Sequence record: MK327941.1
Strand: one strand, 5' to 3'
DNA length: 64,000 bases
Source of the DNA: Escherichia phage vB_EcoM_G37-3
Of this stretch, positions 16,839-21,652 are shown one piece after another. The stretch's first letter is position 1. Each line of letters starts with the position of its first letter. The position numbers were made by a program, and so were the translations under genes. The notes beneath the pieces were generated by a model, which was given only the letters and a program-made list of their open reading frames with translations, was not told the origin of the DNA and ran no database searches.

Positions 16839-18242
16839 ATGAATAACACTATTAATCACGTAAAAGACGATGCACAGTATGTTAAGTTTGACCCTACCGG
16901 AAATTGGCCTAGCAATATAAAAAACGTACAAGCGGCATTAGCCGCTATTCAGGGATTTGCGATTGCAGGTCTTCCAACGGCAACCGAAGAAACAGCGGGT
17001 ATTGCTGAAATTGCTACTCAACAAGAAGTAGATGATGGGTTGGATGGAACGAAAATTGTTACCCCAAAAACATTGGCTGTTAAGCTGTCAAGACCGGACG
17101 CAACAAAACTTGTCAAAGGGATCACTCGCTATGCTAATAACGATGAAGCTATGGGCGATACTCCAAATATTGCAATTGGTCCTGATACATTAACCCATGT
17201 ATTCGAGAACAAGAAAGCAACGGAAACCGTACAGGGTACAATTAAAATCTGTTCTATGGATGCGGCAAAAATAGGTAGCGATGACACTATGGCAGTAACG
17301 CCTAAAAAGATGCACGCTGCTATTGCTCAGATTGTTCCAGGGTTGATTCCAGAACAAAACACGGCGACCGAGTCCCGTGAGGGTTTAGTTAGACTGGCGA
17401 CAAGCCAACAAACGCTTGCTGGTACTATCAGAGAAGGATTTGCCGTTAGTCCATATGCATTTTCCAACGCAAGAGCCAATGAAAATCAGGCGGGTACTGT
17501 TAAAATTGCCTCATCCCAACAAATGATTGACGGCAATGACAACACAGTAGTAGTATCAGCACAAAAATTTGCGAACACTAAAGCAACCACTGGACAATTC
17601 GGTGTTGTTAAGCTAACAGATAACCCAGGATCAGGCGAGGCAAACACAGCACTGTCGGCAAACGCTCGTGTATTGCCTCTAAGTGGTGGTGTCGTTACTG
17701 GTGATGTGTATCGTCATAGCGGAGGCGACGGAAACCAGTTTATCATTAAAAATGAACTGGATGGTCTTTGTATGCCTATTGGTGGCATCATTCTTACAGC
17801 ATTTAACAGTTTCGACCACGCACAATTCAAAATCTGTAACGGTCAATGGTTAAATAAACACCAATATCCAGTATTATTTTCACGAATCGGTTTCACTTAT
17901 GGCGGAGATGGTGGAGACAACTTTGCTCTACCCGATATGCGAGGGCTTGTTGCTAGAGGATGCGACCACGGTCGAGGACTAGACCCAGGTCGTGGATTTG
18001 GTACTTATCAAGACGACACCATGCAACATATGACAGGTAACTTCCCTGTAGCTAACCGTTGGCGCGGTTGGACTGGTGGTGCATTTGCCATCACAGGCGG
18101 TCAATGGAGCACGAACTATAAAAACGGTGGTGGCGATGATTGGGGTAGTATTGTTAACTTTGACAGCGCAAGACAGGTTAGAACGTCTGGCGAAACTCGC
18201 GTTAAAAGCCTTGCATTAAACTACATGATAAGGGTACAATAA
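16839..18242 (+). CDS. 12: short tail fibre protein gp12
   Basis: 467 aa; repetitive G-T-x-K/AG-x-A-x-IA segments and position after gene 11. Confidence 0.85.
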   Translation: MNNTINHVKDDAQYVKFDPTGNWPSNIKNVQAALAAIQGFAIAGLPTATEETAGIAEIATQQEVDDGLDGTKIVTPKTLAVKLSRPDATKLVKGITRYANNDEAMGDTPNIAIGPDTLTHVFENKKATETVQGTIKICSMDAAKIGSDDTMAVTPKKMHAAIAQIVPGLIPEQNTATESREGLVRLATSQQTLAGTIREGFAVSPYAFSNARANENQAGTVKIASSQQMIDGNDNTVVVSAQKFANTKATTGQFGVVKLTDNPGSGEANTALSANARVLPLSGGVVTGDVYRHSGGDGNQFIIKNELDGLCMPIGGIILTAFNSFDHAQFKICNGQWLNKHQYPVLFSRIGFTYGGDGGDNFALPDMRGLVARGCDHGRGLDPGRGFGTYQDDTMQHMTGNFPVANRWRGWTGGAFAITGGQWSTNYKNGGGDDWGSIVNFDSARQVRTSGETRVKSLALNYMIRVQ

Positions 18243-20011
18243 TGATCGAACAGTTAAACATTCGAAAGATCCCTAACGTCGATGGTGTCCCTGGAGAGGG
18301 ACAGCATTCTATTAGCTGGATTAAAAATGGTGAATGTCTAAGCGCAGCAACCACAGAAACAGGACACGAGGGGACGCTTAACCGCGCCCCTTATGCGATT
18401 CAAGAAAATATTGTTCGTCTGGATGAAAATTCTAAGACAACGGTAACAAAAGTTAACGAAGTTGTTACAGCAGTTAATGATATTAAAACTACTTTAGGCG
18501 CGGTTGCTGATGGTAGTATTATTGATATTGTCAATCAAACTATTGCAAAGGTTGAGTCTGTAGAAGAAAATTTAGGAGAAACTTCAAGGACATTACAAAC
18601 CACAGTAGATGAACTGGCGGAGACAGGAAAGAAAATTGGTGTTCGTCCGGCAGCAGATCCGAGTACACGAACAATATATGATGATATTTCTTTCATCAAA
18701 CAAGAATTGGGCGCTTTCCCTAACTTCAATATCAACGGTTCTCCAGATCCGGGTAGTTCCGGTTCCGGTATCAAATATCGAGTTATCCAGAATACGGAAG
18801 CATTAAACAACCACGGTCAGCGAATCCGCCAACTAGAAAACGACTGGCAAGATTCTGACGTTGGAGAGCTAACAAAACAAGTTAACAAAATGCGAAGCGA
18901 GCTAGGCGATACATCACTAGCAACACAGGACAATGTTTATCTTCGTCTTCGCACAAATACTCGCAATATCGCTAGTATATCAAACGAAGTTCAGGAAGTA
19001 AAGAAAGCGATTCTATTTGAATCAATTCCTGATATCGGGACTAAAGTAACTAAGCTACAATCTGATTATACACAGCTTAATGATGAAGTCAACGGCGTTG
19101 ACGCTGGTATCCGTCCTCGTTTAACTCTTCTGGAAAATAATATTGGCAATCCTCAAGCCGCTGGAAGTATTGATTATCGATTGACTAATCAAGAACGGGA
19201 ATGTGTAGATCTTAAATCTGTTGTCGGTGTTAGTGGTGCTGATGGCCTACGTGGTGAGGTTGCACGAATATCTAACACAGTTGGTACTGATAGTGAGCGT
19301 CATACTATCGCAGGTCGTCTAAAAATTGTAGAAAACACACAGGGACGACTAGAAGCTAGCGTACAGGATATCGAGCAAATGATCGGCGATCGAGATTCCG
19401 GTCTAACCGCCGGGGTTATTAAGCTGTCAAGCGACATGTACGGTAATCCAGAAGGAAGCACGCAGCTTGAACAAGATGGGATCGTGAAAACTGTTAAGGA
19501 ATTGAGCACATCCAATGCAAGTAAGGTAACAGACGTTCCTGATGATGGTTTCCATTATCTACGTAAGCACGGGGAATGGGTTCAGGTCGCATGGGCGGCT
19601 GGTGCATTTAAAAACACCGCTCAGATTGATATTACTCTCGACGGACAAGATCAATACAAAGGAATCCCGCTAAACGATATGACCGAAGAAGTTCCTGCGC
19701 GTGGAATGGTTAAGAGCGAATCTATTGTTACGGTTAACGACAAAGGCTTATTCCGTTGTGTTTTCCGTTGTTCTGTACATGCTGCACATAACGCTACTTT
19801 CGTAGTCGGTATTGCTAAAAATGGTCAGATTGTACATGAGGTACGAAATGGTCAGTATGGAACTGATGATTTAATTAGCTATTCTACCAGTGCTTTCCTA
19901 AATATTGAAAAGGGCGACCGGATCGATATTCGCATTAAGGGCGTATCCGAAGAAACATTAGCGCAACAGCTACAAATTAAAGAGTTCCTCTTTGGAATTT
20001 CTCCGGTATAA
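18242..20011 (+). CDS. wac: fibritin (whisker) with foldon-like segment plus ~120-aa extra C-terminal domain
   Basis: 589 aa; coiled-coil-like repeats; DGFHYLRKHGEWVQV resembles T4 foldon DGQAYVRKDGEWVLL; T4 fibritin (487 aa) ends right after the foldon. Confidence 0.8.
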   Translation: MIEQLNIRKIPNVDGVPGEGQHSISWIKNGECLSAATTETGHEGTLNRAPYAIQENIVRLDENSKTTVTKVNEVVTAVNDIKTTLGAVADGSIIDIVNQTIAKVESVEENLGETSRTLQTTVDELAETGKKIGVRPAADPSTRTIYDDISFIKQELGAFPNFNINGSPDPGSSGSGIKYRVIQNTEALNNHGQRIRQLENDWQDSDVGELTKQVNKMRSELGDTSLATQDNVYLRLRTNTRNIASISNEVQEVKKAILFESIPDIGTKVTKLQSDYTQLNDEVNGVDAGIRPRLTLLENNIGNPQAAGSIDYRLTNQERECVDLKSVVGVSGADGLRGEVARISNTVGTDSERHTIAGRLKIVENTQGRLEASVQDIEQMIGDRDSGLTAGVIKLSSDMYGNPEGSTQLEQDGIVKTVKELSTSNASKVTDVPDDGFHYLRKHGEWVQVAWAAGAFKNTAQIDITLDGQDQYKGIPLNDMTEEVPARGMVKSESIVTVNDKGLFRCVFRCSVHAAHNATFVVGIAKNGQIVHEVRNGQYGTDDLISYSTSAFLNIEKGDRIDIRIKGVSEETLAQQLQIKEFLFGISPV

Positions 20012-20017
20012 GAAATT

Positions 20018-20040
20018 AAAGGGGCGTTAAGCCCCTTTTC
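20018..20040 (+). terminator. rho-independent terminator after wac
   Basis: aggggc-gttaa-gcccct followed by TTTT. Confidence 0.6.
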
Positions 20041-20057
20041 CGTTTATAGGTGATATT

Positions 20058-20990
20058 ATGTCAGGATATGTAACCAATAACCCAAGAGAATTAAAAGACG
20101 CTATTCTGCGTCGTTTAGGCGCACCAGTAATTAACGTAGAAGTCACAGAAGACCAGATTTACGATTGTATTCAGAGAGCACTAGAACTCTATGGGGAATA
20201 TCATTTCGATGGTGTGAATAAAGGATATAAAGTATTTCGTGTTAGTGCAGAGCAAGCGCAACACGGGGTATTTGATTTAAGCGATTCTGGAGTATTCGCA
20301 GTAACTAAAATAATTCGAACAAACGTAGGTAGCGCGGCTACGATGGATGGTACTGCCGTTTATCCGTGGTTTACTGACTTTCTGTTGGGTTTAGCGGGTG
20401 TAAATGGCGGTTTAGGATCTGGCTGTAGTAAATTTTATGGTCCAAATGCAATGGGCGGTGATCTGGGATATTTCGAACAGCTTATGAGCTATCGCGCAAC
20501 TATGCAAAATATGCTCAATCCGCTTCCAGATTATTGGTATAATAGCGCAAACGGACAACTTAAGATTACAGGAAACTTCCGAGAAGGTGATCTCATTGTT
20601 GTTGAATTATATGTTAAAAGCTATATAGACGTTCCTGATATGATCGGTGCGGTTGCTGGTTATGCTCATGCGGGAGGATGTTCTACCGCTGGCGGGATTA
20701 GCGCCGTTTATGATAACCCAACTGCTGGTTTAAGCGGGATTGTTGCTGGCATGGGACCGATCCGTGATAACAAGCAGGGCGCATATAATAACCGTTGGGT
20801 TAAAGACATGGCAACCGCTTTCACTAAGGAGGTGTGGGGGTCCATCATGGCTAAACATCAAGGTCTGCAATTACCCGGAGGTGTCACTGTTGATGGTATC
20901 CGAATCATTGAAGAAGCACGCGCCGACATTGAGAAATTGCGACAAGAACTACTTGACTTAGATCCACCATTTGGTATACTAATGATTTGA
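20058..20990 (+). CDS. 13: neck protein gp13
   Basis: 310 aa (T4 309); position. Confidence 0.8.
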
Positions 20991-21007: not shown

Positions 21008-21652
21008 ATGAAAAGACGAAACACATTTTTACGATTGTATGTTACCGAATTTTTATCATCCTCCGGCAAAAAGATATATGGAGGGAAACGACACTCTCCA
21101 TATAAAAATTTCGAATCAGACCCGTATGTCGGGTCTGGAGTGATTATAAAACGAGCAATAGAAAAATATGGAAAGGATTGTGTAATTTCCATATCTTGGT
21201 CAAAACCATTTGAAACACCAGAATTATTGAAAGAGGCCGAAGAATTATTAATAGACGAACTCAAAGACAAATATTCCTATTTTTGCGCTAATTTGGTTAA
21301 AGGTGGACAAGGTGGTTCATATTATGACAAAGACAAAAATCCACGCGTAGGAAAAAAGAGAACTAAAGAAAGTCGAAATAAAATGTCAGAGGCAGCAAAA
21401 AATAGAAAATGGACAGAAGAAGGGTTGAAACGTAGAATCGAAGCAACAATTAAAATGAAAAAAACAGCAAAAGTCCCAGATTTTTCTGGCGACAAAAATC
21501 CAGCCGCAAAGAAAATACAGGTAGGAGATCTTATTTTTAATACTGGAAAAGAATGCGCGAAATATTTTAATATATGTCAAGCAACGGTCATAGATAGGTG
21601 CAAAAATCAACGTCCTAAATGGAAAGAATGGAGATATTATGATTCAATATAA
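21008..21652 (+). CDS. putative Seg-like homing endonuclease (degenerate GIY-YIG N-terminus, NUMOD3/HTH-like C-terminus)
   Basis: Start taken at ATG 21008 (GGGGGAG SD; track start 20987 is TTG); LYV..GKKIYGG..YVGSG N-terminal pattern; [15 protein letters not shown] and [24 protein letters not shown]-binding-like motifs; inserted between genes 13 and 14. Confidence 0.5.

Follow-up and report, generated by a model that had tools for sequence, protein, structure and literature searches.

A predicted C1q/TNF-like head behind an internal foldon-like hairpin in the RB49-type fibritin of Escherichia phage vB_EcoM_G37-3

The wac gene and its product

The window analyzed in this work is a stretch of 64,000 nucleotides of Escherichia phage vB_EcoM_G37-3 [GenBank: MK327941.1]. 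On its plus strand gene 12, encoding the short tail fibre (16839..18242; Pfam Collar), is followed by wac (18242..20011; 589 amino acids plus stop codon), encoding the neck whisker protein fibritin, and by gene 13, encoding a neck protein (20058..20990), the T4 counterpart of which carries the fibritin dock loop (bioRxiv 10.64898/2026.03.06.709160). The stop codon of gene 12 and the ATG of wac overlap by one base. On the strength of its sequence the orf 18242-20011 is assigned as wac: it is flanked by gene 12 and gene 13, encodes the conserved neck-binding N-terminus of approximately 50 residues (aa 7-84 align with residues 6-79 of T4 fibritin, 1ox3/2ibl, E about 1e-14) and a long coiled-coil shaft, divided into segments, that includes a Fibritin_C region. 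T4 fibritin (487 amino acids) was aligned by phmmer to aa 7-431 with E=1.5e-51 (2bsg/3j2o), PHROG 1056 'fibritin neck whisker' matched the protein with E=1e-179, and Pfam Fibritin_C (PF07921) matched aa 368-450 with 86.5 bits against a cut-off of 21 (E=1.4e-24), the alignment reaching position 91 of the 93 in the profile. The gene is 100% identical to G5211_00149 of vB_EcoM_G5211 [GenBank: MK327947.1], a Krischvirus of the RB49/JSE group, and shares 99% nucleotide identity with wac of JSE.

Four parts may be distinguished in the protein. The conserved N-terminal domain (18242..18391, plus strand; aa 1-50) aligns closely with residues 6-50 of T4 fibritin, and its role in neck attachment is taken from PMC3797505. 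The segmented coiled-coil shaft (18392..19534, plus strand; aa 51-431) is likewise homologous to that of T4 fibritin (PDB entries of the T4 protein and its foldon: 2bsg, 1aa0, 1rfo). It is followed by a foldon-like beta-hairpin, VPDDGFHYLRKHGEWVQV (19535..19588, plus strand; aa 432-449), and by a C-terminal head of 140 residues (19589..20008, plus strand; aa 450-589), predicted to be a C1q/TNF-like jelly-roll and to form the distal knob of the whisker.

The hairpin belongs to the second stretch of the 2bsg alignment, in which aa 425-449 are paired with residues 456-480 of the 487 in T4 fibritin, which belong to its foldon; the T4 protein ends seven residues past the aligned stretch, in agreement with the statement of the sequence-only reading that it stops right after its foldon. 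Ten of the 27 positions are identical, among them the P, DG, Y, RK and GEW(V) of the T4 signature P-x-DG-x-x-Y-x-RK-x-GEWV. Across 11 divergent homologues there is no variation at D435, Y439 and R441 and little at W446 (at least 90% conserved). The T4 foldon occupies the C-terminus and trimerises alone, whereas the motif found here is internal and the head comes after it; the corresponding RB49 motif has been reported as insufficient for folding (PMC3797505).

The sequence-only reading had described a foldon-like segment with further residues behind it, and the strings on which it relied (VPDDGFHYLRKHGEWVQV, GLFRCVFRCSVHAAHNATFVVGIAKNGQIVHEV and DRIDIRIKGV) are all present in the orf. The extension is real, but longer than the proposed ~120 residues, since it comprises 140 residues beyond 'VQV' (19589-20008), and the suggested start at 19560 misses the reading frame by one base (in-frame 19559) and falls inside the foldon-like motif.

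In a metagenomic fibritin of 992 amino acids (P0018) at least six foldon-like motifs (D-G-x-x-Y-x-R-x-x-G-x-W) are scattered over the C-terminal half. The foldon hairpin therefore behaves as an internal module that can be used repeatedly, and does not serve only as a C-terminal cap. The Pfam entry PF28231.1 is precomputed on two Krischvirus fibritin clusters (P0007 and P0008), and it was not reported by the local Pfam copy for the window protein, which is 95% identical to the fibritins of these clusters; PF28231 possibly represents a more recent family that models a portion of fibritin.

Predicted fold, occurrence and conservation of the head

When aa 406-589 were modelled by AF2 from the single sequence, the model reached a pLDDT of 48.6 and was left out of the fold search. 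The alignment of the head was built from an exhaustive HMMER search, which led to a divergent fibritin of 591 amino acids (P0005), and from a search with P0005 as the query, which provided nine proteins of the same architecture (588-591 amino acids, identity down to 30%). With the resulting 11-sequence alignment AF2 returned for the head alone an all-beta model of 11 strands (pLDDT 91.9, pTM 0.86), in which a ten-stranded jelly-roll beta-sandwich with the topology of the C1q/TNF superfamily is predicted. The closest structural neighbours of this model were the C1q domain of Caprin-2 (15.2), EDA-A1 (14.9), the cyanophage A4 tail fibre (14.7), BclA (14.6 and 14.3) and ExsFA (14.5), followed by cerebellin, C1q and about 30 TNF ligands (12-14), and by PRD1 P5, the receptor-binding domain (RBD) of TM4 gp23, the phage 1358 RBP and the Sf6 needle knob (9.1-12.9). 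Foldseek searches of PDB and BFVD agreed with these C1q/TNF-like neighbours, and 384 viral matches at E<=1e-3 were obtained in BFVD; many of these were the heads of collagen-like proteins or of tail-fibre proteins. The head is thus predicted to adopt a C1q/TNF-like jelly-roll fold. The beta-rich globular domain expected by the sequence-only reading is folded in the model, and its guess of a C1q/TNF-like fold, for which structure prediction and fold comparison had been proposed, was borne out at the level of prediction.

The closest viral neighbour in BFVD was A0A1J0MHA5 of Klebsiella phage KPV15 (159 amino acids, TM 0.81, 19% identity), a small stand-alone uncharacterised protein. If KPV15 is T4-like, as we take it to be, C1q-like heads would also be encoded separately, as small proteins of their own, in this group of phages.

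Sequence profiles gave a fainter signal. Pfam BclA_C (PF18573) matched eight of the 11 relatives with a best E=2.7e-7, and stayed below its gathering threshold of 38 bits both for the window protein (16 bits) and for the best relative, P0013 (27.9 bits). Pfam C1q (PF00386) scored 16.2 bits against a threshold of 23.7 (E=0.012) for the window protein, with sub-threshold matches in seven of the 11 relatives (best E=0.0018), and the match of NCBIfam GXX_rpt_CTERM to the head (E=0.0095) was below the curated threshold. A profile search with the head among PDB sequences gave no significant match. Because all these sequence matches are sub-threshold, the head is placed in the C1q/TNF superfamily by its predicted fold, and not as a Pfam-level member. 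No paralogue of the head was found elsewhere in the window.

The C1q-like heads of the Bacillus exosporium (the C-terminal domain of BclA, ExsFA and BxpB) share 13-15% identity with the head. The BclA_C domain is expected behind a collagen-like GXX stalk, which in BclA is a triple helix, whereas the fibritin head follows an alpha-helical coiled coil and a foldon-like hairpin, with no GXX repeats. The other relatives by fold comprise the gC1q domains (Caprin-2, C1q, cerebellin, C1QL) and TNF ligands (EDA-A1, TL1A, APRIL) of eukaryotic signalling and recognition proteins, and the TNF/C1q-like heads of other phages: the Sf6 tail-needle knob (3rwn), PRD1 P5 (1yq5), cyanophage A4 (9k09) and A-1(L) (8ke9), TM4 gp23 (9n6a) and the 1358 RBP (4l92). 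These phage heads are parts of tail or vertex devices for host recognition or penetration, whereas the head described here is carried by the whiskers of the neck, structures that in T4 control the long tail fibres and do not bind the host.

By tblastn the 140-residue head was detected in 57 phage records, all of Krischvirus and all at full length, with 75-100% identity, and wac was 1770 nt long in every Krischvirus gene examined. RB49 fibritin (gpwac, AAP04366.2) belongs to the same family and shares the architecture, the length of 589 amino acids and the position between gp12 and gp13; its head is 77% identical to that of the window protein over the full length (tblastn), so the latter is an RB49-type fibritin, and the two differ only by allelic divergence (RB49-like versus JSE-like group).

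Among 1.84 billion protein representatives, searched exhaustively with HMMER, the head was found in fibritins only. Two deeper uncultured T4-like lineages (P0005 and P0014) encode the same arrangement of foldon-like motif plus head in the same context as in Krischvirus (gp11-gp12-wac-gp13-gp14), and their heads had no isolate closer than the Krischvirus records. Homologue searches with the short head domain or its profile gave two fragments of 110 amino acids only: P0001, which sits on a contig of 927 bp, and P0002, which was rejected as a natural split gene and ascribed to a gene call truncated by a 100-N scaffold gap. Two apparent matches of the exhaustive HMMER search (P0004 and P0006) were discarded as low-complexity repeat artefacts.

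The selection acting on the parts of wac was estimated by the Nei-Gojobori method from ten Krischvirus genes. The dN/dS ratio was 0.057 for the N-terminal domain, 0.097 for the shaft, 0.054 for the foldon-like motif and 0.179 for the head. The dN of the head (0.098) equals that of the shaft, whereas its dS is lower (0.60 vs 1.15), which is attributed to the mosaicism of wac in ELT3 and Makalu_002 described below. The head is under purifying selection, and per-site entropy revealed no hypervariable loops in it. The mean entropy was about 0.40 bits for the strands A, C, F and H of the inner sheet vs about 0.65 bits for the outer strands, both averages being hand-computed with the sheets assigned from the canonical strand order; a conserved trimer interface would give such a pattern.

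The constant length in 57 records together with purifying selection indicates that the extension is genuinely coding and did not arise by read-through. The view that it is a disordered or non-functional tail, a read-through artefact, or a recent phage-specific mobile host-range cassette starts from the bare length difference from T4 only, and it is scarcely credible: disorder and artefact are eliminated by the confident AF2 fold, the identical length in the 57 records and purifying selection, a host-range cassette under diversifying selection is ruled out by the dN/dS values and the per-site entropy, and the presence of the head in deeply divergent lineages and its restriction to fibritins among the 1.84 billion representatives also speak against this view. 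Of the two findings that the sequence-only reading had named as fatal to its proposal, predicted disorder did not appear, and the other, a long ancestral form of which that of T4 is a truncation, applies only in so far as the long form is the norm of Krischvirus and of at least the two deeper lineages P0005 and P0014.

An RB49-type fibritin was reportedly described by Letarov et al. in 2005. Letarov and Krisch (2013; PMC3797505) list the 'RB49 type' as one of eight types of fibritin C-terminal module, and report that the module type follows the gp23 phylogeny. The bare foldon of T4 is only one of several such types. Efimov et al. (2022; PMC9569957) considered the C-terminal moiety of RB49-like Wac unrelated to that of T4. 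In the RB43-type fibritin (P0016, Citrobacter phage IME-CF2) the C-terminus is likewise expanded past the shaft by globular modules, which are Ig-like and SprB-type domains, with no foldon motif recognisable by eye. The head-bearing fibritin is therefore no discovery, being the canonical, published RB49 type, of invariant length and fixed across Krischvirus, and not a new system. In the literature searched, where the 2005 work is represented by the papers of 2013 and 2022, no paper names the fold of the RB49-type module; the only increments of the present analysis are the C1q/TNF-like fold assignment and the retained, strongly constrained foldon-like hairpin.

Possible functions of the head

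The heads of C1q, TNF and BclA are obligate trimers, which stand at the C-termini of trimeric stalks and nucleate their assembly; C1q, collagens VIII and X, and BclA are the established cases of stalk nucleation by the head. By analogy, the fibritin head is probably both a folding and trimerisation nucleus and a persistent distal knob. The foldon-like hairpin (aa 432-449) runs directly into the head (aa 450-589), which would most likely assemble as an obligate homotrimer, nucleate the parallel three-stranded coiled coil of the shaft and set its register, and take over or reinforce the task done in T4 by the 27-residue foldon alone. It would then persist on the virion, capping the distal end of every whisker and collar fibre with a compact knob; these fibres number twelve per virion (six whiskers and six collar fibres) if the T4 count applies. 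That the head is trimeric at all, and that it is itself the nucleus, are in each case the most likely reading of the analogy; the foldon-like motif may contribute, or it may itself nucleate the trimer, which the head would then only stabilise.

This role is suggested, besides the likeness to C1q, TNF and BclA, by the reported dependence of RB49 fibritin on its C-terminus: the foldon alone reportedly folds only the fibritins of T4 and JS98, whereas that of RB49 requires sequences of its enlarged C-terminus in order to fold and trimerise, and every fibritin examined is a trimer (PMC3797505). An RB49-type head on a retained foldon-like hairpin gives the structural hypothesis of a trimerisation clamp, which may also be a lectin, and suggests a natural foldon-plus-head trimerisation unit for protein engineers.

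Fibritin of T4 controls the attachment and retraction of the long tail fibres (PMC3797505), and the knob could serve as a docking module that holds the retracted fibres 'up' and aids their attachment, or contacts the tail or capsid. We regard this as possible but unlikely, and would say the same of the knob as the RB49-type version of the environmental-sensing switch of fibritin. T4 genetics has placed the contact with the long tail fibres in the C-terminal part of fibritin (PMC3797505), a different Wac C-terminus may accompany a different resting conformation of the fibres in RB49-like phages (Efimov et al., PMC9569957), and purifying selection on the head fits a conserved internal partner. 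The T4 docking site for the kneecap gp35 of the long tail fibre has, however, been mapped to the shaft helix alpha11 (residues 361-386) and not to the foldon tip (bioRxiv 10.64898/2026.03.06.709160), and the homologous shaft segment is present in the window fibritin (19307..19384, plus strand; aa 356-381, hand-mapped from the alignment). The residues of the T4 gp35-whisker contact are kept here at one of four whisker positions and two of seven positions of the gp35 groove, gp35 itself being 25% identical to that of T4; these counts fit retention and loss of the dock alike. Across Krischvirus gp35 varies too little (94-100% identity) for covariation with the head, whose divergence reaches about 23%, to become visible.

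It has also been considered that the knob, on top of any folding role, acts as an accessory adhesin or lectin for a host-surface or environmental glycan (LPS, capsule or mucus), and by weak reversible attachment would concentrate virions near their hosts. This proposal appears doubtful. Many neighbours of the model are receptor- or carbohydrate-binding heads, among them the CBD of the short tail fibre of cyanophage A-1(L) (8ke9), the RBD of TM4 gp23 (9n6a), the RBP of lactococcal phage 1358 with GlcNAc (4l92), the Photorhabdus TNF-like lectin (9ib6) and BC2L-C, and Letarov and Krisch (PMC3797505) speculated that variant fibritin tips may be accessory adhesins, a speculation which the receptor-binding or sensing function suggested by the sequence-only reading repeats. 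A bare foldon is enough for T4, and the extra 140 residues suggest an added function; since 27 residues suffice there, a pure folding role leaves the 140-residue head unexplained, which makes room for an added binding function. Unlike host-range adhesins, though, the head has a dN/dS of about 0.18 and lacks hypervariable loops, and its type follows the core-genome phylogeny and not the host, unlike gp37/gp38 (PMC3797505). Recognition of O-antigen and OmpA in RB49-like phages maps to the long-tail-fibre protein gp38 (PMC9569957), no ligand-site motif was identified in the head, and the published biochemistry (PMC3797505) points instead to folding and trimerisation.

It seems improbable that the Krischvirus knob is a lectin-like adhesin or an environmental sensor for a conserved glycan such as the LPS core, enterobacterial common antigen or gut mucin. 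Were it so, a glycan-binding knob would pre-concentrate virions on surfaces or gate the deployment of the long tail fibres, and the neck whiskers would gain a direct ligand recognition that is absent from the bare foldon of T4. Neither the unlikely docking role nor the doubtful adhesin role excludes the head as folding nucleus and distal knob, and both are compatible with it.

Allele groups and genes around wac

The block gp12-wac-gp13 (16839-20990) occurs in Krischvirus as two groups of alleles, JSE-like and RB49-like, with about 78% nucleotide identity; the G5211 allele of wac belongs to the JSE-like group. The kneecap protein gp35 is not split in this way and retains 94-100% amino acid identity across the same genomes. 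In wac of ELT3 and Makalu_002 (L007 and L008) the sequence is RB49-like (98-99%) up to about nt 1350-1500, and the last ~270 nt are G5211/JSE-like (95-99%). The combination of an RB49-like 5' part with a G5211/JSE-like 3' end therefore places a homologous-recombination breakpoint inside the C1q-like head.

Escherichia phage vB_EcoM_Skers [GenBank: MW748999.1; 154,769 bp] carries a Krischvirus gp35 (97.9% identical), and it is absent from the 57 records matching the head and, among the gp12-wac-gp13 matches listed (the top 60 of 937), from the 57 that match at full length. Its record is about 10 kb shorter than those of its relatives, and it is probably an incomplete genome record and not a natural deletion of wac.

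Between gene 13 and gene 14, and overlapping both, lies an orf for a free-standing Seg-like homing endonuclease (21008-21652, plus strand; the mechanical orf starts at TTG 20987). It matches Pfam I-TevI_DNA-bd (E=3.4e-4) and NUMOD3 (E=0.012), and is annotated in GenBank as 'putative group I intron endonuclease'. The same slot is empty in RB49, JSE, ELT3, JK32, SSG23 and UPWr_E1; it is occupied by an annotated SegB endonuclease of 271 amino acids in Makalu_002, by SegC in Phi1, and in KFS-EC by an orf of the same size and position annotated as 'hypothetical protein'.
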